A stretch of DNA of 64,000 bases, taken from positions 84,487 to 148,486 of the forward strand of contig MFPS01000007.1 of NCBI GenBank assembly GCA_001782825.1, written 5' to 3'. How positions within the stretch are numbered: the stretch's first letter is position 1; every line of letters starts with the position of its first letter. This DNA comes from Candidatus Magasanikbacteria bacterium RIFCSPHIGHO2_01_FULL_33_34 (lineage in GTDB: Bacteria; Patescibacteriota; Patescibacteriia; Magasanikbacterales; UBA922). The notes below the pieces were generated by a model that did not search any database, was not told the origin of the DNA, and saw nothing but the letters and a program-made list of their open reading frames with translations. The translations under genes were made by a program, and so were the position numbers. Below are positions 5,382 to 61,547 of this stretch, one piece after another.

Positions 5382-6611
5382 CTAAGCAGGTTCCACATCT
5401 ATATTATTTTTCTTTAACCATTCTCTGTGTTCTATTCTCTTCTTTTCCAAAGTATCCTGATCATCCCATATATTTTCCTTTATCCATTGATTATTTTCAT
5501 CCTTCCACCAAATCTTTGGATCATAAAAATTCTCGTCACAATATTTATCAAATTCTTCCTCAGAAACTCCTGCATAATCAAACCAAAATTTAAAATCTTT
5601 GGAACGCACATGGTCATATTTTTTTATCATTTCAATTCCTTCTTCACGAGTCATATAACCCAGTCTAATATCCTTACAAACATGATCACTACATCTACCA
5701 TATCCAAACTTCACATATTTTAAGTAATCCTTAATACCTGTTTCATATTTATCATCTAAATTAGAAATAGTACGATATGTTCTTTCAAATGGCTCTGGTG
5801 AAGGTTCCCAACCAAGTTCTTTCATTATAAAATCAGTTTGCTTATACATATCCCAATGTACATAATTGCCCAAAAATATTCCTCTGATTCCTAAATCAGA
5901 GATCTCTTCCATAGTAGGATACTGATAAAAGTTAAAATCATTTTCTTTTAAACCTTCTCTCAATTTTGAACGCCCAATTTTTTCCAACCCCTCATCTGTT
6001 AAGTCTCTAAAATTAAAACCTCTCTGATGATGCTCATGGAAGTCCCTAGCACTCATTTCTACCAAATCATAAAGAGAATATTGACCTCCACGATCAAGTC
6101 GACCATGTTCACCCCACATTATAAGGGGTACATTGTATTTTACTGCCATCTTAACTGGAAAACTAAAAATACCAGAATGGCAATGCCAACTCATATCACC
6201 CATCAAACGAAAAGTTAAACGGTTTAATTTTTTCAAAACTTTTATACTGGGGTAACCAATGATATGATCAACATCAAAAGTATGACGCATTTTGTATAAA
6301 TTTTTCTCACCAATTGGGTGGTAATTGTTACCGTGATATGTCACTAACAATGGTTTAAGTTTTAAAACTTCAGTAGCATACCAAGTTTGATACCAACTAT
6401 CTTTTCCACCACTTACTGGTATTAAAATATCATAACCACCAGTTTTGGAACGATAAGGCTCTACCAAATCTTGTAACATCTTGGCCCTTTCATCCCAGTC
6501 TATTTTTGGTTTTTCAGCATTAACAATACAACCACTACAAACCCCATTTTCATCAAAAGATAATTTTACGGCAGAAGATGCTGGATAAATACATTTTGTA
6601 CACCATTTCAT
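5382..6611 (-). CDS. N-acetyl sugar amidotransferase (PseA/WbpG-like, PP-loop ATP pyrophosphatase family)
   Basis: Cys-rich N-terminus (CTKCIYP...CSGC) followed by the PP-loop ILIPVSGGKDS. 409 aa. Immediately followed by HisF- and HisH-like genes, the classical acetamidino-forming triad. Confidence 0.65.
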   Translation of the reverse strand: MKWCTKCIYPASSAVKLSFDENGVCSGCIVNAEKPKIDWDERAKMLQDLVEPYRSKTGGYDILIPVSGGKDSWYQTWYATEVLKLKPLLVTYHGNNYHPIGEKNLYKMRHTFDVDHIIGYPSIKVLKKLNRLTFRLMGDMSWHCHSGIFSFPVKMAVKYNVPLIMWGEHGRLDRGGQYSLYDLVEMSARDFHEHHQRGFNFRDLTDEGLEKIGRSKLREGLKENDFNFYQYPTMEEISDLGIRGIFLGNYVHWDMYKQTDFIMKELGWEPSPEPFERTYRTISNLDDKYETGIKDYLKYVKFGYGRCSDHVCKDIRLGYMTREEGIEMIKKYDHVRSKDFKFWFDYAGVSEEEFDKYCDENFYDPKIWWKDENNQWIKENIWDDQDTLEKKRIEHREWLKKNNIDVEPA

Positions 6612-33272: not shown

Positions 33273-33319
33273 AAAAATAGTTCTTAGCTATTAGTCCATA
33301 GCCAATAGTTCAATTGATT

Positions 33320-33673
33320 TTAAACATATAATTTCTCACGATATTTATATAACATTTTTAAAATTTCCAATAAAAGATTATCAGCTTTAGTAAATAATTT
33401 TATTCCTGCAAAATTTAATTTTTTTGCTATGACAATTTGAGTTTCAAGTTCAGTTGCAGAACCAAAGGAAATGTTAACAAACTGCGCATTTTCTTTTTTA
33501 CTCTTTCTTGCATACCCTTCGGCAATATTGGATGGTATTGAAATTGCACACCTTCTCATCTGTGAAATAATACCAAATTTTTCTTCCACTGGAAACAAAT
33601 TTGTTAATTTATAAATTTCTACCACTAATTCAATAGATTTCTGCCAAACAATCAAATCTTTATAAGTATTCAT
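33320..33673 (-). CDS. Four-helix-bundle protein (TIGR02436-like; the family often encoded in 23S rRNA intervening sequences)
   Basis: MNTYKDLIVWQKSIELVVEIYKLTNLFPVEEKFGIISQMRRCAISIPSNIAEGYAR. 117 aa. Confidence 0.65.
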   Translation of the reverse strand: MNTYKDLIVWQKSIELVVEIYKLTNLFPVEEKFGIISQMRRCAISIPSNIAEGYARKSKKENAQFVNISFGSATELETQIVIAKKLNFAGIKLFTKADNLLLEILKMLYKYREKLYV

Positions 33674-33683
33674 AGTTTTTACT

Positions 33684-33725
33684 ACTGGCTACTGGCTATT
33701 GGCTATTGGCTATTGACTAATGGCT
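33684..33725. repeat. Heptanucleotide tandem repeat (ACTGGCT/ATTGGCT/ATTGACT, 6 units) overlapping the gmd stop codon and lying 11 nt upstream of the four-helix-bundle gene
   Basis: actggct actggct attggct attggct attgact aatggct. Inverted copies (CCAATAG / GCTATTAG) occur at 33277-33298 on the other side of the four-helix gene. Confidence 0.6.
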
Positions 33726-38212: not shown

Positions 38213-39203
38213 ATTTTTTAATTTCATTAATAAATCTTTCTTTATAATCAATTGGTAATATAATAACATTTTCACTTGGCTTCAATTCATAGTTAGCTAC
38301 ACCAACATCTGACATAATCACTTTTTTACCAGCCATATTTGCCTCCATTGGCACCATACCATAACCTTCACTTAAACTTGGAAACAAAACAACATCACAA
38401 GTCTTTATATAACTTATATGATCATCTGTCCAATCTTCAAATTTGATATTATTTTCTAGACCTAACATTTTTACTTTTTCGATCAAAATATTTTTCTGCG
38501 AACCACTACCAACCACAAGTAATAAATAATCTTTTTTTTCTTTAATTACTTCTGCAAAAATATCAATTAAAAAATCAATATTCTTGACAAGCTCAAGCCT
38601 ACCAATACTTAAAAATATTTTATTATAAGCAGAATATTTTTTCTTCAAGTCTGTCTTGATTTGATATGATTCAATATATTCTTTATTCACTTCTATTGCT
38701 CTCAATTCTATTTTGTCTTCATTCACTCCCAATTCTAATAAATTATTCTTTATTCTTTCCCCTACTACTCTTATTTTATCTGCATTATACAAAACTATAT
38801 ATTTTGCCAAAAAATATTGTATAAAATTTTTAAAACCACTTTTTTTATAATAACTATTACCAAAAAAATCTCCGTGCAATTGAATCTCCAAATTAATTTT
38901 TGTCTTTTTCTTTAAAATCAAACCTAATAAACCAGTAAAAAATGGATCTTGTGTTGTTATCAAGTCAATAACATATTTTTTAATGATAATCTCGCCTTTC
39001 TTTTTTAATTTTATAAATTGTTTAATTTTATTACCACCAATTCCCCAAACTTTAACCTCTGGAGACAATTCTACAAACTTATCTATAGTATTTGGTACAA
39101 TAATATACAATCTATCATATACACCATAATCAACCATGCGTTTCGCCACCATAGAGTTACTGTCCAATATTTTATTGTCTAAACTTATCATTAATTTTGG
39201 CAT
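38205..39203 (-). CDS. GT4 (GT-B) glycosyltransferase
   Basis: 332 aa; C-terminal VVLFPSLSEGYGMVPMEANMAGKKVIMSDVG. Confidence 0.6.
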   Translation of the reverse strand: MPKLMISLDNKILDSNSMVAKRMVDYGVYDRLYIIVPNTIDKFVELSPEVKVWGIGGNKIKQFIKLKKKGEIIIKKYVIDLITTQDPFFTGLLGLILKKKTKINLEIQLHGDFFGNSYYKKSGFKNFIQYFLAKYIVLYNADKIRVVGERIKNNLLELGVNEDKIELRAIEVNKEYIESYQIKTDLKKKYSAYNKIFLSIGRLELVKNIDFLIDIFAEVIKEKKDYLLLVVGSGSQKNILIEKVKMLGLENNIKFEDWTDDHISYIKTCDVVLFPSLSEGYGMVPMEANMAGKKVIMSDVGVANYELKPSENVIILPIDYKERFINEIKKYE

Positions 39204-47147: not shown

Positions 47148-48329
47148 ATGAAAAAAAATAAACTAAAACTTCTCTATCTTATCACCCAAGGACATTGGGG
47201 TGGAGCCCAAAAATATGTATTTGATTTAGCTACAGCGCTAACTGATGAATATGATATTACAGTAGCTGTTGGAGAACCAAATAATCTACCTGATTTACAA
47301 AAAAAATTATTAACCAACCAAAAAATCAAACTAGTTCAACTTAATTTTTTGCAAAGATCTATTTCTCCTATAAAAGACTTTTTGGCTCTACTTGAAATCA
47401 ATAATCTATATCGCAAAATCAAACCAGATATTGTCCACCTCAATAGTACCAAAGCCGGCATTCTCGGCTCATTTGCTTGTCAAATGTCAAATGTCAAATG
47501 TCAAATGTTGGTATATACTGTCCATGGCTGGGTTTTTAATGAACCTATGAACAAATTTAAAAAATACATATATAAAATAATGGAAGGTATAAGTTCACGA
47601 CGCAAAGATAAGATTATTGTATTATCTGACAATGAAAAAGAAACAGGTATAAATTTATTGAATATCAAAAAAGATAAATTTGTAATAATTCCAGTCGGTA
47701 TTGAATCTAACATAACTACCCTAAACAGAGTGAACGCTATAAACAAAATAAATAATACTTTCAAAAAAAATATACTAAAGCAAGATGATTATATAATTGG
47801 CACAATTGCAAACTTCTATCCTACAAAAAATTTAAGTAGTCTAATAGAAGCAATCAATATTGTTAAAAACAAATTAAACAATTTTCATAGTATAATCATT
47901 GGCGAAGGAGAAGAAAGAGTACATCTGGAATTTTTGATAAAAAAATATAATCTTGAAAACAATATACATTTAACCGGTTTTATTGATAATGCTCAAAACC
48001 TCCTAAAAGCATTCAATGTATTTGTGTTACCTTCCAAAAAAGAAGGTATACCTTATACCATAATAGAAGCCAGAATAAATAATATCCCAATCATAGCCAC
48101 CAATGTTGGTTCTATATACAAAATAATTGACAATATGAAAACTGGCATACTTCTGGAACCAGAAAATACTCAAAAACTTGCCGAGGCATTGATTTATGCC
48201 TATGAAAATCAAAAAGAAATGATCGCAATGGCAAATGCATCCAAAGAACAAAATCTACCAGAATATCTCAAAAACACCATGATTATAGAAACAGCCAATA
48301 TATACAAAAATTTTACCAATAAATCCTAG
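47148..48329 (+). CDS. GT4 (GT-B) glycosyltransferase containing an in-frame heptanucleotide tandem repeat
   Basis: 393 aa; C-terminal PSKKEGIPYTIIEARINNIPIIATNVGS; (GTCAAAT)x4 at 47479-47506 encodes CQMSNVKCQM. Confidence 0.65.
   Translation: MKKNKLKLLYLITQGHWGGAQKYVFDLATALTDEYDITVAVGEPNNLPDLQKKLLTNQKIKLVQLNFLQRSISPIKDFLALLEINNLYRKIKPDIVHLNSTKAGILGSFACQMSNVKCQMLVYTVHGWVFNEPMNKFKKYIYKIMEGISSRRKDKIIVLSDNEKETGINLLNIKKDKFVIIPVGIESNITTLNRVNAINKINNTFKKNILKQDDYIIGTIANFYPTKNLSSLIEAINIVKNKLNNFHSIIIGEGEERVHLEFLIKKYNLENNIHLTGFIDNAQNLLKAFNVFVLPSKKEGIPYTIIEARINNIPIIATNVGSIYKIIDNMKTGILLEPENTQKLAEALIYAYENQKEMIAMANASKEQNLPEYLKNTMIIETANIYKNFTNKS
47479..47506 (+). repeat. (GTCAAAT)x4 heptanucleotide tandem repeat inside a GT4 coding sequence (candidate slipped-strand phase-variation tract)
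   Basis: Four perfect 7-bp units plus a partial GT. The unit length is not a multiple of 3, so a +/-1 unit change shifts the frame. Confidence 0.7.
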
Positions 48330-49772: not shown

Positions 49773-51833
49773 CTACTCTACCAAGTCACCCTCGGCTTTA
49801 TTTTTTTCTGATTTGTATTTATTTAATATACTTTCAATCACTGGCTCACCCTCACCACCAAAATTAATGCCTTTTTCAGTGGCTTCATTTATTGTCGATA
49901 TTGCATCATCCATAGTCCTAAATACACTCTGCAAAAGAGCCAAGCGCCACCAACTTTCACCAATCGTTTCATCATCTTTTATGGCTCGCCTATACAATGC
50001 CTCTGCTTCATCAACTTTATCCAATTGAATCTTGATTCCAGCCAAGGTATAAATAAACTGCTGTCTTTTTGGAGACTTTTCTAAACCATCTTCCATAATC
50101 TTTTCTGCCTCAAGCAATAAGCCTTTATTTCCTGAAAGCGTAGCTGCTTCTTGGATTAACAAAGCTTGTTGAGAATGAATACGCAAATCCAATGGATGCA
50201 ATTTTCTATTCTTTTCTAATTCTTCAATAGATAATTGAAATAAAGCTTGAGCCAATTCTGGTTTCCCCGCTTGTACATATCCACGCAAAGATGAACTTAT
50301 AGTTCTGGTAACATCATTGCGAATATCATCAATATGCGGAGTTGGAATACTAACAGCTTTTTCATAAAGTGGTCTTATATCCTCCATACCATAAATCCCT
50401 CTCAAAACTATTAAAGTTGCCATATTGGCCCGAGCTGGATTTAAATTGGTTGCATAAATAAATAAAACCATAGTCAAAATAGAAACAACTGCAACTGGAA
50501 TAGAAATATTTTTATTTTTTGCATCTGCTATATTCTCAATGTCTTTATTCTTTATTCCCAAGATCTGACTATTTATCATCGCCAAAAAGAAAAAGAAATA
50601 TAAATAAGAAGTAGGGTTGTCAAATACTGATACAGTCTGCGCTAAATGGGCTATCAAAAAAGCCGAAGTTACAGCCAAAAGATGTATATCAAATCCATCT
50701 GAATTTTTTCTATATAATTTCCATATATAAAAAATAGCAACAAAAAATATTCCCAAATAAATTATAACACCAACAATCCCCCGTTCTGTCAAAGTATTAA
50801 GAACAATATTGTGAGCATTGTCAAACCAGGTTTCACGATAACTAAAATGTAAAAATTCTGCTTTATAATATTGATTAAAAGCAAAATAATAATTGCTAGG
50901 GCCCCAACCAAAAATTGGATAATCTTTCCAACCTTCAATCGCTATTTGCCAAGCCATAAACCTAGTCCCAAGAGTGCTATTTGAAGTATTCAATAATCTG
51001 CCAACAGTGGGAATACTCTTGATAAAACTAGTCTGTCTAAAACTAAATACAATACCAAAAAAAACTATTAAAAATACAGTCAACAATAATAAAAGTTTTC
51101 TAATCTTTGTATGTTTTTTGAGAGTAATAATATATGAAATAATCAAAATACCAATACCCACTATAAACGCTAATAAAGCTCCTCTGGAACCACTAAAAAA
51201 TATACCCAAAAAACCCAAAAAACCAACAATGCCCACAAATAACTTCCACCCCAACGACTTCTCTTTCATCAACATAAGCCAGCCCATAAAAGCCAAAAAT
51301 AATCCATAACCACCAACATAAATCGGATTGCCAAGTGTAGAGGCTGATCTATTTCCACTAGTATTTAATAAAAACTCCTGATCAAATTGTTGAATTAAAG
51401 CAATCCCCATCACAATCCCTCCAGCCAACAAAAAAGTTCTTAGCAACCATTGCCAATCGTCCCAATTGCGTACTACCGATGTAACCATCAAATAATACAA
51501 AACATAATGAGCTACAGTAAAAAATCCCAACATCCTTTCATGATTATCCCAAAAACTTCTGTACCAATCTAACCCAACAAAGGTTGAGATACCAAAACTA
51601 ATCAAAAATAACAAAATAACTATATTTAAAGGAGAATTTCGTATAATATATTTTTTCCAATCACTAGCCAAAAGAATAATATACAAGGCAAGAAGTACAA
51701 GAGTAAGCGATCTGAATATCACAATCTTTGGAACAATAAACGGAAAAATAAAATTTGTCGGAAAAAAAGCCAATGGTACAAAAAAAGTTAATCCAACCAC
51801 AATTTTAAATAATAATTCAATTCTTTTTTGCAT
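49773..51833 (-). CDS. O-antigen ligase/polymerase (Wzy_C) domain membrane protein fused to C-terminal TPR repeats
   Basis: FSGSRGALLAFIVGIGILI Wzy_C-type loop; about 12 TM helices; C-terminal ~250 aa TPR-like (AEALYRRAI..., AQALFQLSIEELEK...). Confidence 0.55.
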   Translation of the reverse strand: MQKRIELLFKIVVGLTFFVPLAFFPTNFIFPFIVPKIVIFRSLTLVLLALYIILLASDWKKYIIRNSPLNIVILLFLISFGISTFVGLDWYRSFWDNHERMLGFFTVAHYVLYYLMVTSVVRNWDDWQWLLRTFLLAGGIVMGIALIQQFDQEFLLNTSGNRSASTLGNPIYVGGYGLFLAFMGWLMLMKEKSLGWKLFVGIVGFLGFLGIFFSGSRGALLAFIVGIGILIISYIITLKKHTKIRKLLLLLTVFLIVFFGIVFSFRQTSFIKSIPTVGRLLNTSNSTLGTRFMAWQIAIEGWKDYPIFGWGPSNYYFAFNQYYKAEFLHFSYRETWFDNAHNIVLNTLTERGIVGVIIYLGIFFVAIFYIWKLYRKNSDGFDIHLLAVTSAFLIAHLAQTVSVFDNPTSYLYFFFFLAMINSQILGIKNKDIENIADAKNKNISIPVAVVSILTMVLFIYATNLNPARANMATLIVLRGIYGMEDIRPLYEKAVSIPTPHIDDIRNDVTRTISSSLRGYVQAGKPELAQALFQLSIEELEKNRKLHPLDLRIHSQQALLIQEAATLSGNKGLLLEAEKIMEDGLEKSPKRQQFIYTLAGIKIQLDKVDEAEALYRRAIKDDETIGESWWRLALLQSVFRTMDDAISTINEATEKGINFGGEGEPVIESILNKYKSEKNKAEGDLVE

Positions 51834-51840
51834 ACGAAAT

Positions 51841-51960
51841 ATTTAAACATTAAAACATATAAACATACAAACATATAAACATTTTACAAATCTTAAAATA
51901 CTCTACTAAAAATGTTTAAATGCTTATATGTTTGTATGTTTATATCTTAATCTATTGTGT
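51841..51960. repeat. TAAACAT-unit inverted-repeat array X (about 30-bp arms)
   Basis: Left arm ATATAAACATACAAACATATAAACATTTT; right arm AAAATGTTTAAATGCTTATATGTTTGTATGTTTATAT. Related arrays occur at 52611-52670 and 58795-58925. Confidence 0.5.
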
Positions 51961-52614: not shown

Positions 52615-52670
52615 AATGTTTATATATTTTAATGTTTATATGTTTATGTATTTCATATTTTAACATAAAT

Positions 52671-56515: not shown

Positions 56516-56809
56516 AAATTATTTATTCGCCTTATCCAGAACGCAAGCTTACCTTAAAGGTAGCCGTCTCCAGACTAAGACATATTTTTACAGAGCACAT
56601 AATGACCCTATATTGGACCTCGACCTTTGTTATATGCGATTTATACGGTTTGCCCTCCTTGACAAATGCCAAGGATCACATACTGTATGGCACAAGTTTG
56701 TCCATAATTTTGAACAAACCTAGCTATACAGTCCCCGTATACACCGAATTAAATTAAAATTTAATTAGTTAATTAATTGATTCTCATCAGCCTGATTAGT
56801 CTTTTTTAT

Positions 56810-58204: not shown

Positions 58205-58768
58205 TTATTTTTTCTTTGGGCTTTTAGGCTCAACAAATTCTTTTAATTTTTTGGTAGCGCGATAGATTATTATTCGTACATTTGTTGCGCTGATATCCAA
58301 TATGCCTGCAATATCTTTGGTTGACAAACCTTCTATATATCTCAAATGTATTACTTCCTGATACTCATGTTTTAATTTTTTTATAGATTTTATCAAATCT
58401 TGCTGTTCTTCTTTTACTTCAATATCTATTCGCAAATCATTACCAACCAATGTCTCAGTCGCCACATCAATCAAACACTCATTCTTTCTGGCGCGCTCAC
58501 GATACACATCAATTATTCTATTTCTAGCAATTCTATAAACCAATTGTCTAAAACTGGTAATATCTCTCGGTTTCTCAATCAAATAATCCCAAGTTTTTAA
58601 AAAGACTTCAGAAGATATATCTTCAGCATCCTCACGATTGGATAATTTAAAAAAAACAAACCTATAAATCGGTTGAATATAAAAATCATACAATTTAGCA
58701 AATGCTTCTGTATCTCTCTTGCTGATCACTTTGTAAACTAATAATTTCTCTTCTATATGAGTCTTCAT
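58205..58768 (-). CDS. ECF-type sigma-70 family RNA polymerase sigma factor
   Basis: Region 2 (FAKLYDFYIQPIYRFVFFKLSNREDAEDISSEVFLKTWDYL) and region 4 HTH (LSTKDIAGILDISATNVRIIIYRATKKLKE). The track start at 58870 overlaps a palindromic array; Met35 chosen. Confidence 0.75.
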   Translation of the reverse strand: MKTHIEEKLLVYKVISKRDTEAFAKLYDFYIQPIYRFVFFKLSNREDAEDISSEVFLKTWDYLIEKPRDITSFRQLVYRIARNRIIDVYRERARKNECLIDVATETLVGNDLRIDIEVKEEQQDLIKSIKKLKHEYQEVIHLRYIEGLSTKDIAGILDISATNVRIIIYRATKKLKEFVEPKSPKKK

Positions 58769-58794
58769 ATATATAGACGGGAAAATGGTTAAAA

Positions 58795-58925
58795 TGTTAC
58801 ACTCTATGGCATTTAAACATGTAAGCATATAAACATTTAAACATATGGTGATTTCATCAATATGTTTCAACCCACATGTTTAAATGTTTGTATGTTTTAA
58901 TGTTTATATGTTTTAAATGCCAAAA
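58795..58925. repeat. TAAACAT-unit inverted-repeat array Z, immediately upstream of the ECF sigma gene
   Basis: GGCATTTAAACATGTAAGCATATAAACATTTAAACATATGG ... CATGTTTAAATGTTTGTATGTTTTAATGTTTATATGTTTTAAATGCC. Confidence 0.5.
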
Positions 58926-59307
58926 AAAATCGGAAATCCCGAAAGTGTACAGATACGAGTATACTATATATATGGTAAAGAAGCAAGTGGAAAGAGTTAA
59001 TTGTGCCATGTTTAATACACACTATCATTACCCCGCAACAGGCGGGAATCTATTAATTTACTCTCTATAAGCTATATTTCCGCCTATGTGAGAAAGACAA
59101 ATTATGTCTTGAAGAAATCGGCATAAATTATATTTATAAGTAAAAATAACCAAAAAAGCAATACTATTCAACAAAACCTCAAAATACACTAAAAAGTTAT
59201 TTGCAAATAAATTTTTACTGATTACACTAGCTAATATAGCTATATTTGTATAGACTATTGTATACAAATATGATTTTATATTATTTTTCAATCGCTTAAA
59301 TTAGCTA

Positions 59308-59353
59308 TTTATTAATATTTTGTATAGACTAGTCTATACAAAATATTAATAAA
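59308..59353. promoter_or_regulatory. Perfect 46-bp palindrome (TTATTAATATTTTGTATAGACT|AGTCTATACAAAATATTAATAA), candidate operator upstream of the HTH gene
   Basis: Verified base by base. The related half-site palindrome ATTTGTATAGACTATTGTATACAAAT lies at 59244-59269. Confidence 0.6.
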
Positions 59354-59460
59354 AACACCTAAATAACCAAAAAATCTACAAACAAGTATTGACAAAAACC
59401 TCATTATATGCTATAATTGTATATACTATTCTGTACAAAAAGTATAAATATTACTAAATT

Positions 59461-59799
59461 ATGACAGATTTGCCTACAATTGATCAATCCAAAGAAATAG
59501 TAAGAGTGTCAATTTCTGAAGCTGCTCGTTTATTTGGAGTGAATGCCCAGACTATACGTAGGGCAATCCAATCTGGCGAGATTACTTATGTGGTGGTAGC
59601 TGGTAGATACAAGCTAAACTTTGAAAGCCTTGTCAGATGGTCTCAAACCAAAACTACAGTTAAAAACAAATCAGAAAAGTTTGGTATCGGGCAATATGTG
59701 GATAAATGGAAGATAAAGAACACACTCTACTCCCCTAGCACCAAGAGCATAAAAACATCTAAACATAAAAACATAAAAACATCAGAACCGTCAGCCTAA
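59461..59799 (+). CDS. Helix-turn-helix DNA-binding protein of the excisionase/MerR-like 'excise' family
   Basis: VSISEAARLFGVNAQTIRRAIQSGEITYVVVAGRYKLNFESLVRW follows the excisionase-family DNA-binding pattern. 112 aa; Lys/Ser-rich C-terminal tail encoded by an (AAAACATA)x3 repeat. Confidence 0.5.
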   Translation: MTDLPTIDQSKEIVRVSISEAARLFGVNAQTIRRAIQSGEITYVVVAGRYKLNFESLVRWSQTKTTVKNKSEKFGIGQYVDKWKIKNTLYSPSTKSIKTSKHKNIKTSEPSA

Positions 59800-59815: not shown

Positions 59816-59953
59816 ATTAAAAGTTGCATCATTTTAGAAAATAAAAAAAGACGTCGCGAGGCTGGGAGCCAAGCGACGTCGTAGGGGATCTCTGAAGACC
59901 CCGTTAGGATCACCTTCGGTGAGGGTTACTCACCTTGGGTGAATCACACTGCG

Positions 59954-60943
59954 TCATGGGTAGACGCAAGTGTTTGTGCCCACGTCGCAGTATGGCGACG
60001 GTGGACACGAATCTCCACACGGCAAGGCCGTGTAAAGGGTGCAGTGCCAGTCTTCATAGCACTGCACGCAGGTGCCATCCAGGCACTTGCGTTTGTCCGA
60101 CGGACAGTCGGAGTGCCCACTGCACTCCGGTTCCGGCTTGTCGCAGGTGCACTCACCGGCGACGCAGGAGTAGCCGTCGTCGCAGACGACCAGTTCGTGC
60201 TGGCAACCTAGAGTTGCGTCGCACGAATCGGTCGTACAGCTGTCACCGTCGTCGCACCCACCCAATGGGGGGGCAACTTGGTCACACAAACATGTGTCCG
60301 GGTTTTGTGCCCAGACACCGTTGCACGCGTCCTCGTCATCACAGACGAGGGGCGCGCAGCTCGGCGGAGCGTCACACTCCGGAACACCGGCATCCGGTGT
60401 CCCAAGGGGACATGTCGGACACGTCGGTTCCGGAGTGCATCCACTGGAAGTCGAGCAAAACTCTCCTTCGTTGCAGATTGTGCTGTCGGGGACCTGGAAA
60501 CACCCAGTACCCTCGACACACACGCCGACGGTGCAGACGAACGGGTCGTTGCAAGCGGGCGGTTCGCCCGGACGACATTCGCCGTCCAGACAGCGCTCCG
60601 CGCCGTTGCAGAACAACCCGTCGTTGCAGTCCAGATCCATTTCACAGGTCTCCGGACAACCGACACACGTGGGCGGACCCACGCACTCGTTGCGACTCTC
60701 GTCGCAGGTCATGCCGTTTTGACACAGGTCACCGGTGTGGGCACATTCGCCCACTCCGATACAGTACTCCACGCCATTACAGAACAACCCGTCCTGCGGA
60801 CAATCGCAAGCGTTACCGCCTGCATCATCCGCCGAACCAGCGTCAAGGGTAGAATTGCCGTTTGGCAACTCCACCCCGAAGTGGTCACGGCCCTCACCGC
60901 AAGCGGCGAGAGCCAAGAAAGCAAGAATGAGGATTCTCATCAT
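59954..60943 (-). CDS. Cysteine-rich secreted lipoprotein (about 16% Cys) with repeated DGLFCNG.E.C / CDDGDSC-type modules
   Basis: Signal peptide plus lipobox (LALAAC-G); repeats DGLFCNGVEYC, DGLFCNGAERC, CDDEDACNG, CDDGDSCTTDSCD. 329 aa; high GC3. Confidence 0.5.
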   Translation of the reverse strand: MMRILILAFLALAACGEGRDHFGVELPNGNSTLDAGSADDAGGNACDCPQDGLFCNGVEYCIGVGECAHTGDLCQNGMTCDESRNECVGPPTCVGCPETCEMDLDCNDGLFCNGAERCLDGECRPGEPPACNDPFVCTVGVCVEGTGCFQVPDSTICNEGEFCSTSSGCTPEPTCPTCPLGTPDAGVPECDAPPSCAPLVCDDEDACNGVWAQNPDTCLCDQVAPPLGGCDDGDSCTTDSCDATLGCQHELVVCDDGYSCVAGECTCDKPEPECSGHSDCPSDKRKCLDGTCVQCYEDWHCTLYTALPCGDSCPPSPYCDVGTNTCVYP

Positions 60944-60964
60944 TTTCTTTTCTTTCTGCCACCC

Positions 60965-61423
60965 TTAGCGGGTGGCATAGCAGATGATACCGGTGACGAG
61001 AGCCGACGCGCCTGCTCCGGCCGCCGCGAACTTCCACGTGGCGTCGAACCAGACGTCGACGCGAGAGGCCGAAACCTCCACGTCGTTGGGGTAGCGGATG
61101 CTGCCGTAGGCAGCACCTCCTGCTGTTCCGGCGAGACCGCCGAGAGCCATTGCTCCCAGACAGCCCCGCTTCTGCGCAGGTACCTTGACCGTGGTCGTGT
61201 CCGTGATGGGCACGACCAATTCGACGTCACAGTCCCCGTCAGACGGGCACTGCACCTGGCGGTCAAAGACCGCTTCGCCGTTGGCGGTCACTCCGTCGCT
61301 GGTGTCAAGCATCGTGCTCGAGACCACCGGCCTGGCGGTGTGCACCGCACAACCGCTGAGGATGTTGACCACAAGGGCCAACGCGAGGCCGAAAACGGCC
61401 AGAAACAAAAGATCCTTCTTCAT
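60965..61423 (-). CDS. Small lipoprotein (Gly/Ala-rich C-terminus)
   Basis: MKKDLLFLAVFGLALALVVNILSGC lipobox; SD AGGAGAGAG 5 nt upstream of ATG. 152 aa. Confidence 0.45.
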   Translation of the reverse strand: MKKDLLFLAVFGLALALVVNILSGCAVHTARPVVSSTMLDTSDGVTANGEAVFDRQVQCPSDGDCDVELVVPITDTTTVKVPAQKRGCLGAMALGGLAGTAGGAAYGSIRYPNDVEVSASRVDVWFDATWKFAAAGAGASALVTGIICYATR

Positions 61424-61547
61424 GTCTCTCTCCTGTTTCCCGACATCTTATCGGGATAGTTTCTGTTTGGTTGAAAGGTTGAAAAGAAAGGTCACCCTGC
61501 CTGGTGGTTAAACTGGGCAAAATGACCAGCGATGTGGCTGATGAAGA

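Follow-up and report, generated by a model that had tools for sequence, protein, structure and literature searches.

Tandem-unit fold-backs in a Magasanikbacteria sigma factor cluster as probable gene-less relatives of PF05635 cassettes

A stretch of 64,000 nucleotides from Candidatus Magasanikbacteria bacterium RIFCSPHIGHO2_01_FULL_33_34, a lineage from the Rifle aquifer (contig MFPS01000007.1, positions 84,487 to 148,486; henceforth the window), carries four arrays of tandem 8-bp units, referred to here as X, Y, Z and W, all inside 8 kb of a gene cluster for an extracytoplasmic function (ECF) sigma factor. Their shared layout, their fixed polarity, the arms common to gene-bearing and gene-less elements in two other loci, and a complete PF05635 cassette elsewhere in the window lead us to read X and Z as fold-backs of the PF05635 cassette family that lack an open reading frame (ORF) and resemble the intervening sequences (IVSs) of rRNA genes, and Y and W as single arms. 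We assign this reading a probability of about 0.6. The arrays are composed as follows, in window positions.

51837-51949, minus-strand genes: X fold-back, filling the spacer from the TPR stop codon to the ATG of the Wzy_C-TPR gene
51912..51949, minus strand: X 5' arm (TPR/Wzy sense), units TAAGATAT, AAACATAC, AAACATAT, AAGCATTT, AAACATTT
51885..51911, minus strand: X loop, ~27 nt
51837..51884, minus strand: X 3' arm (sense), (ATGTTTNN)x5 then ATATTTCGT, followed by the Wzy_C-TPR start codon at 51833
52616..52653, minus strand: Y single arm, (NNAAACAT)x4-5 in the sense strand
58807-58919, minus-strand sigma gene: Z fold-back, upstream of the sigma ATG
58874..58919, minus strand: Z 5' arm (sigma sense), (NNAAACAT)x5
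58847..58873, minus strand: Z loop
58807..58846, minus strand: Z 3' arm (sense), ATGTTTAA ATGTTTAT ATGCTTAC ATGTTTAA ATGCC
59745..59784, plus strand: W single arm, (AAACATNN)x4 plus a degenerate unit, at the 3' end of the HTH_17 gene

A first-pass annotation of the window had described X, Y and Z as long imperfect palindromes of 7-8-bp units directly upstream of start codons, with Z taken to be non-coding. X and Z are indeed true fold-backs, reading on either strand 5'-(AAACATNN)4-6, a loop of 23-30 nt and (ATGTTTNN)4-6, whereas Y is essentially one arm, and W is added here as a fourth array. The tandem AAACAT units are likewise borne out, with a period that is strictly 8 bp according to Tandem Repeats Finder (TRF) and that splits into AAACAT, the 6-bp core, and a variable linker of 2 bp; a higher-order periodicity of 16 bp is superimposed. 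Core positions carry 1.3-2.0 bits of information, compared with 0.5-0.8 bits for linker positions (Fisher p = 1.5e-9). As for placement, X and Y abut their start codons, Y ending 1 nt short of that of the TPR gene (52614), but Z stops 42 nt ahead of the sigma ATG, with a conserved ECF promoter in the gap. The 5' arm of X begins 3 nt past the TPR stop codon (51954-51952), and both X arms bear the same linker series, as expected from inverted duplication; the X loop is unlike the Z loop and is partly kept in one orthologous cluster (L203). Y would be situated within a putative G-free 5' leader of the TPR mRNA. A terminator-like hairpin with a T8 run (58942-58930, minus strand) precedes the 5' arm of Z. 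W, which is followed by a hairpin, codes for the C-terminal tail (SIKTSKHKNIKT) of the HTH_17 protein.

The same annotation had pointed out that heptamer runs common throughout a low-GC genome would be background. The doublet AAACATNNAAACAT, allowing at most one mismatch, occurs 23 times against 2.7 expected occurrences, a number that no shuffle reached, and 21 of the 23 matches fall in 51.8-59.8 kb. Three-unit matches of at least 15/18 all lie within the four arrays except for a borderline one at 38374 (15/18), none of at least 16/18 lies outside them in the whole 64 kb, and no additional array is present in ~5 kb beyond the window. Confinement of the matches to four sites shows that the arrays are not AT-rich background. 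X, Y, Z and W are, moreover, identical in all loci that span them (11-14 per array; 15 loci from independent assemblies of the same population) and, being identical across at least 11 independent assemblies, are not assembly artefacts. The arrays are real, constitute one repeat family and are non-coding, except for W.

Folded as RNA, X forms an uninterrupted stem of 28 consecutive pairs (-37.3 kcal/mol, z = -6.3), while Z reaches -38.5 kcal/mol in the sense and -44.2 kcal/mol in the antisense orientation; Y and W are single arms only, without an inverse partner. G-U pairs were considered as an indication of an RNA strand preference and rejected as such, X favouring the sense and Z the antisense strand. 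Identification of X and Z as intrinsic terminators was also rejected, as their stems are AT-rich and without a U tract; the sense strand of X, Y and Z contains no terminator and no match resembling a sigma-70 promoter.

An element with the same architecture as the arrays, complete with a gene, is present in the window itself, within a string of glycosyltransferase genes.

33276..33725, minus strand: full cassette
33725-33682, minus strand: cassette 5' arm, (CAATAGC)x5
[quoted passage not shown]
~33310-33276, minus strand: cassette inverse 3' arm, CTATTGG CTATGGA CTAATAG CTAAGAA, ending at the ATG of the next gene (33272)

Inverted tandem-unit arrays also flank further IVP homologues: a Moraniibacteria genome has two copies (L051, L083), both with AAACAT/ATGTTT arms, and there is one copy each in Saccharibacteria (L034) and Anaerolineales (L067) as well as three in Bacteroidales (including L059 and L072). 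For a survey of the family, 80 metagenome loci were chosen by homology to a single IVP protein alone, of which 72 were scored. Arms are visible in most of the 80 loci. When 120 nt of upstream flank was compared with the reverse complement of 120 nt of downstream flank, 39 of the 72 loci had at least 10 hexamers in common, against 8 of 48 with the flanks displaced by 400 nt. Wherever periodicity is strong, the arm period is either 7 or 8. Neighbouring genes share the orientation of the cassette (56:5 upstream, 55:14 downstream), the spacers are ~50 nt long, which equals the arm length, and the 3' arm commonly continues into the ATG of the following host gene. Polarity does not vary: ARCAY-type units make up the 5' arm and RTGYT-type units the 3' arm in 16 cassettes, with the reverse in 0, and ORF-less fold-backs have a forward arm followed by a reverse arm (F>R) in nine cases, X and Z included, and the opposite order (R>F) in none. 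In 2.4 Mb of control loci no ORF-less fold-back was found. Finally, the arm duplex is more stable in IVP-sense than in antisense RNA in 44 of the 72 cassettes, versus 28 with the opposite preference (Wilcoxon p = 0.017).

Two loci connect elements with and without the gene directly. In L530, three successive spacers have AAACAT.../AAATGCTYAAATGTTAA arms, one of them holding an IVP gene and the other two loops of 12-20 nt, and each time the 3' arm extends as far as the ATG of the following gene. L542 is similar, with nearly identical arms with and without an IVP gene and an identical 3' arm; taken together, the loops in the ORF-less neighbour spacers of L530 and L542 measure 12-30 nt. X has the same setting, lying between co-directional genes with its 3' arm reaching a start codon, and Z shares it in part, being separated from the ATG by 42 nt that contain a promoter. 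Neither X nor Z has an ORF in its loop, and the IVP cassette of the window has different, 7-nt CAATAGC arms.

Such arrays could also be neutral by-products of replication slippage and of template switching at quasi-palindromes in AT-rich spacers, without function and unrelated to IVP cassettes. Their fast turnover, with different cores in the same spacer, the 16-bp higher-order periodicity, the linker series common to both X arms and the equal abundance elsewhere of composition-matched 8-bp arrays would all fit such an origin. On the other hand, neutral slippage accounts neither for a core far more conserved than the linker, nor for polarity ratios of 9:0 and 16:0, nor for the specific association with IVP genes and the arms common to copies with and without the ORF, nor for an X 3' arm that is better conserved than the neighbouring coding DNA. 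We regard a purely neutral origin as unlikely.

The suggestion of a miniature repeat family, also made in the first-pass annotation, comes close to the evidence in that the arrays are one repeat family, but does not extend to classical miniature inverted-repeat transposable elements (MITEs) mobilised by a DNA transposase. The arms could be taken for terminal inverted repeats of elements of ~106-110 bp, of which there are many dispersed copies. Nonetheless, target-site duplications are missing, X and Z have unrelated loops, copies are not near-identical, relatives offer no clean empty site, and no transposase gene is associated with the arrays, which makes mobilisation of this type highly improbable.

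The genes adjoining the arrays, and the control elements of the cluster, are the following.

58768-58205, minus strand: ECF sigma factor
58195-56810, minus strand: DUF5667-like putative anti-sigma factor
56515-52760, minus strand: giant protein of 1251 aa with no known domain
52706-52685, minus strand: terminator of the giant gene
52614-51952, minus strand: TPR protein
51833-49773, minus strand: Wzy_C-TPR protein, with a DUF2079 gene next in order
58766..58801, minus strand: ECF-type promoter and putative leaderless sigma start, TGTAAC at 58801-58796, 16-nt spacer, CGTC at 58779-58776, 7 nt, ATG at 58768
52657..52665, minus strand: extended -10 promoter of the TPR gene, TGTTAAAAT, as read from the sequences; outside the array family
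59245-59268, 59319-59342 and 59416-59439: three palindromes of 22-24 bp, TTGTATAGACTAGTCTATACAA, bracketing the HTH_17 promoter
59389-59417: HTH_17 promoter, a perfect TTGACA-17-TATAAT

The sigma gene and the excisionase-type HTH_17 gene are divergently oriented. The product of the latter scores 16.2 bits against the BldC model NF033787 (cut-off 77), passes only the generic excisionase model TIGR01764 and has no relative in the PDB by sequence.

Nine orthologous clusters, with sigma factors 53-84% identical to that of the window, were fetched and compared with the window, giving ten loci in total. Z is present in the window lineage and L207. Its site is occupied by AAACAC/GTGTTT arrays in L203, by AAGCCTNNN arrays with the core AAGCCT in L206 and by inverted GTAAC arrays in L527, and Z is absent from L202 (the sister lineage), L204, L205 and L529; the gene-proximal part of its 3' arm is common to L207 and L203. 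X exists as a fold-back only in the window lineage. L203 has the 3' arm alone, L528 has an AAACAC arm in the other orientation, and X is absent where the TPR-Wzy distance is 4-27 nt. W is also found in L207 and is absent from the six loci in which the 3' end of the HTH gene was examined (L202-L205, L527, L529), L206 and L528 not including that region.

While the arrays turn over, the sigma gene, the HTH gene and their control elements are conserved throughout the orthologous clusters. The ECF promoter, TGTAACATTTT-N11-CGTCT-N6-ATG, is invariant in the ten loci and separate from the arrays, and its position 7 nt before the ATG implies that the sigma mRNA would be leaderless. It lies inside the N-terminal extension of the sigma ORF that runs through Z, an extension that the first-pass annotation was right to distrust, since all orthologues start at ATG 58768. 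The extended -10 promoter of the TPR gene, directly after the giant-gene terminator, is kept as TGnTAAAAT in at least six orthologous loci, and the three TTGTATAGACTAGTCTATACAA palindromes are kept in at least six loci examined (L202-L205, L207, L529); the palindromes probably constitute the actual operators of the divergent region between HTH and sigma. As the arrays are lost or replaced in orthologues in which true promoters and operators are fixed, they appear not to be operators of this cluster.

These observations bear upon the earlier proposal that the arrays are operators shared by a common regulator, which is not upheld: the arrays are absent, changed in core or one-armed in orthologues in which the genes and their control elements are conserved. 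In one form of this proposal, a small cooperative protein coats iteron-like 8-bp units and controls the sigma, TPR and Wzy genes together, the candidates being a ribbon-helix-helix protein (omega, ParG or MetJ type) or an excisionase/BldC-like HTH_17 protein. A conserved core with a free linker, and direct and inverted units beside gene starts, are what such a protein would require, and there are precedents in the omega heptads (PMC9499535) and the BldC direct repeats (PMC5859096); furthermore, all four arrays lie at most 8 kb from the HTH_17 gene, and conservation of the X 3' arm between two lineages is unusually high. Weighing more heavily in our view, however, most orthologous clusters lack the arrays or have another core while HTH_17, sigma and their promoters are conserved, the conserved sites beside the HTH gene are the three 22-bp palindromes and not arrays, no small ORF of the ribbon-helix-helix type is nearby, and the HTH protein reaches 16 bits where the BldC cut-off is 77. 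Placement is inconsistent as well, with Z upstream of the -35 box, Y in the leader and X between cistrons. Iteron-type control is accordingly given little credence.

Autoregulation by the ECF sigma factor through the arrays, either as binding sites or as decoys, fares worse still. The unit (T)AAACAT does resemble the -35 box TGTAACAT of the conserved promoter (TAACAT versus AAACAT), and in L527 inverted GTAAC arrays lie upstream of that same promoter. Yet no array contains the -10 element CGTC at the required spacing: a search for GTAAC-N15-18-CGTC over the 64 kb returned the sigma promoter, downstream of Z, as sole match, and nothing at X or Y. Most orthologues that keep the promoter are without arrays, and the same arrays stand beside unrelated housekeeping genes in other genomes of the candidate phyla radiation (CPR). 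We consider this possibility extremely unlikely.

The arrays might, alternatively, be clusters of weak extended -10-like promoters (TGnTTNNAT) that fire at the A of an ATG two units downstream and give rise to leaderless mRNAs. The unit matches TGn and 4-5 of the 6 positions of the -10 hexamer, its phasing would place the +1 position on the ATG, extended -10 promoters are common in this genome, and arrays often abut start codons in phase. Each register nevertheless lacks either the -11 A or the -7 T, and X, Y and Z are without sense-strand promoter matches, as noted above; arrays are downstream of a clear promoter in some loci and upstream of one in others, and neither the 5' arms nor the association with IVP genes would be explained. 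Such a role is very unlikely. Separately, many promoters in the window are apparently of the extended -10 type (TGnTATAAT or TGnTAAAAT). Shine-Dalgarno sequences are nearly absent window-wide (3 weak matches among 50 gene starts), the upstream regions being A/T-rich; their lack at the three array genes is near-universal in the window and hence uninformative as a peculiarity of these genes.

Distribution beyond the cluster was assessed with a four-unit pattern scan across 185,579 genomes, which yielded many loci with CPR bacteria over-represented. Similar fold-backs in other CPR genomes adjoin unrelated genes, such as rpsO, rplT and rplJ-rplL. In viral contigs, AAACAT arrays number 67, versus 88, 116 and at least 120 for composition-matched control cores. 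A conserved AAACAT-binding factor across CPR phyla was rejected, the control cores being as frequent or more so, as was an apparent synteny of an array with a sigma homologue in L054, where the array is in the rplJ-rplL spacer and the sigma homologue a mere neighbour.

Several findings weigh against assigning X and Z to the PF05635 cassette family. Neither the 64-kb window nor any of the ten sigma-cluster loci contains an IVP gene with AAACAT-type arms, and no name from this genome appears among the best 120 of 3,913 IVP protein matches; the link consequently draws on architecture and on other genomes. Z and the IVP cassette of the window have the stabler duplex in antisense, and the sense/antisense asymmetry of the family is only weakly significant. 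Z further has a terminator-like hairpin in front of it, and the sole recognisable promoter of the sigma operon is downstream of it; sense transcription of Z may therefore not occur, and Z may be an untranscribed passenger. The conservation of the X 3' arm, together with the core-plus-linker design, would fit a protein-binding site or a promoter or leader element as well. Since other A-rich 8-bp cores are equally common in viral contigs, cross-phylum matches of the pattern scan are weak evidence by themselves. Lastly, RNase III cleavage of the paired arms is carried over from rRNA IVSs and would hold by analogy.

If X and Z are nevertheless cassette relatives, as we favour, the following mechanism can be envisaged, in which pairing at the RNA level, cleavage by RNase III, any benefit to the host and the mode of spread are inferred by analogy. 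Its basis is what the sequences show, namely the architecture, polarity and co-orientation of the elements, the arms common to copies with and without the ORF, and the lack of conservation at orthologous sites. Members of the family consist, in order, of a host stop codon, a 5' arm, a short loop or an IVP ORF, and an inverse-complement 3' arm (RTGYT..). The 5' arm is made up of 4-10 tandem units of 7-8 nt, each with a conserved core, typically ..ARCAY, and a linker of 2-3 nt; the 3' arm often continues in phase up to the ATG with which the following host gene starts, and the cassettes reside inside strings of co-directional genes. In the transcript, the arms would pair into a long stem that RNase III would cut, as in rRNA IVSs, so that the loop, with or without an ORF, would be removed and the flanking cistrons separated. 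At X, the TPR and Wzy messages would thereby be separated, the Wzy message keeping an unstructured AU-rich leader of ~25 nt. Because any 5' unit can pair with any 3' unit through the core, the stem would tolerate gain and loss of units, and this register-free pairing would explain a conserved core with a free linker. Arms would grow, shrink and be re-copied through slippage and template switching, which would in turn explain their fast turnover between lineages.

A more far-reaching version unites fold-backs and IVP cassettes in a single mRNA intervening-sequence system, which would lodge between cistrons, remove itself by means of a repeat-built stem cut by RNase III and thus define the 5' end of the next mRNA in bacteria without Shine-Dalgarno sequences. 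The PF05635 protein, a pentameric ring related to Avd, a protein of diversity-generating retroelements (DGRs), would recognise the tandem 7-8-nt units, one for each subunit, and would help the arms to spread or persist; as non-autonomous copies, X and Z would be served in trans. We put this forward tentatively and consider it doubtful as a whole.

Some further features of the cluster deserve mention in their own right. The X 3' arm differs from its counterpart in L203 by one missing unit and 1 difference in ~47 aligned nt, the adjacent coding DNA being 82% identical. The Wzy_C-TPR gene (49773-51833) has a DNA identity of 0.76-0.82 to the distant L203 in its 5' part, versus 0.66-0.73 to the sister lineage L202, which suggests that a Wzy segment may have been exchanged between lineages; the near-identity of the X 3' arm and the Wzy start in L203 points to a possible constraint on the leader. 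The spacer between the DUF5667 gene and the gene for the 1251-aa protein (56516-56809, minus strand) contains an element of ~250 nt that is conserved in nine orthologous loci, in which 49 pairs are predicted by RNAalifold and 20 of these show compensatory double changes. With no Rfam match even at E <= 1, this element is a candidate for a new structured leader RNA inside the ECF operon. L207 has a GC-rich, apparently structured insertion of ~360 bp in the HTH-sigma spacer (L207 positions ~5540-5900) that is absent from the window.

The length of the giant protein differs among co-occurring strains (1251, 1255 and 1332 aa; loci L191 and L193), and assemblies often break within its gene while the flanking arrays stay identical. 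L094 has a distant homologue of this protein, followed by a terminator and an AAACAT array, as at Y. Phase variation at a contingency locus was rejected for the arrays, as linkers differ between units and the arrays are identical in at least 11 assemblies, whereas the neighbouring giant gene varies. A repeat that does look like a frameshift-prone contingency repeat is located elsewhere in the window, at 47478-47508 (plus strand), where a GT4 glycosyltransferase gene contains the perfect in-frame heptamer repeat (TGTCAAA)x4.4, identical in the 7 covering assemblies. Additionally, a 60% GC island in this 30% GC genome extends over ~59850-61500, where gene callers disagree on the strand; one ORF, at 59954-60943 (minus strand), encodes a Cys-rich Dicty_CTDC repeat, and no Rfam or tRNA match was obtained for the island.

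Small genes annotated as "four-helix-bundle" or "S23p" (PF05635) rank with the most frequent unexplained ones in CPR bacteria, Bacteroidota and other groups; a single CPR subfamily comprises ~3,900 clusters at 90% identity. To our knowledge, the IVSs of rRNA have been without explanation for decades. The present analysis shows that these genes occupy, inside operons, a cassette of fixed layout and polarity whose arms consist of tandem units, and that gene-less copies of the cassette abut start codons. Predictions that can be tested follow from viewing them as cassettes, namely that RNase III cleaves the stems, that the protein binds the units, and that the ORF is present in some loops and absent from others. 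There is also a warning for annotation in that the arrays mimic operators at gene starts, yet are not conserved regulatory sites. At this locus, real control elements, i.e., the leaderless ECF promoter, the extended -10 promoter, the palindromic operators and the conserved leader RNA, insofar as these assignments hold, can be sorted from repeat elements. No description of such tandem-unit cassettes between protein-coding genes was found in the searchable literature, nor anything relevant on promoters, leaderless starts or tandem repeats in CPR bacteria. What sets these elements apart from rRNA IVSs is the location between protein genes, the core-plus-linker arms throughout and the arms that reach the next start codon.

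Among known systems, the rRNA IVSs of Coxiella, Leptospira, Salmonella and CPR bacteria are stem-loops with or without a PF05635 (S23p) ORF that are regarded as selfish and horizontally spread (PMC4990558, PMC11270868), and the protein encoded resembles the DGR protein Avd (PMC10053308). The IVS of Coxiella has a terminal stem of 28 bp, which is cut by RNase III within the stem, and tandem heptamer repeats before the S23p ORF that vary in number between strains (PMC4990558); rRNA genes of CPR bacteria contain IVP ORFs and many short ORF-less insertions (PMC11270868). The elements described here are alike in having an inverted-repeat stem of ~28 bp (28 bp in X) and a loop that is either short, in elements of ~100 nt, or carries a PF05635 ORF. 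They differ in lying between protein-coding genes rather than in rRNA helices 25/45, in arms that consist wholly of core-plus-linker units of 7-8 nt, and in a 3' arm that runs into the next start codon; RNase III processing, known for rRNA IVSs, would here apply by analogy from sequence.

The arrays bound by omega (ParB of pSM19035), by ParG (parH) and by MetJ (met boxes) are likewise built from contiguous 7-8-bp units, direct or inverted, in variable number and near promoters. The sites of omega are runs of 7-10 contiguous 7-bp heptads, oriented either way, that overlap promoters (PMC9499535), and BldC binds variable numbers of direct repeats head-to-tail (PMC5859096). Here, by contrast, a cognate ribbon-helix-helix gene is missing, conservation of the arrays does not follow that of their supposed target genes, and a strictly convergent F>R arrangement replaces mixed orientations. 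Extragenic palindromes within operons that are able to affect mRNA ends are also known as REP/BIME elements (repetitive extragenic palindromes and bacterial interspersed mosaic elements); REP sequences, however, are single GC-rich palindromes of 20-40 bp linked to RAYT transposases, instead of AT-rich tandem-unit arms accompanied by PF05635 genes. As in MITEs and eukaryotic fold-back (FB) transposons, short non-autonomous copies outnumber ORF-bearing ones, and FB elements share the arms of short tandem repeats; neither transposase, target-site duplication nor near-identical copies were found for the present elements, whose cargo is a four-helix-bundle protein.

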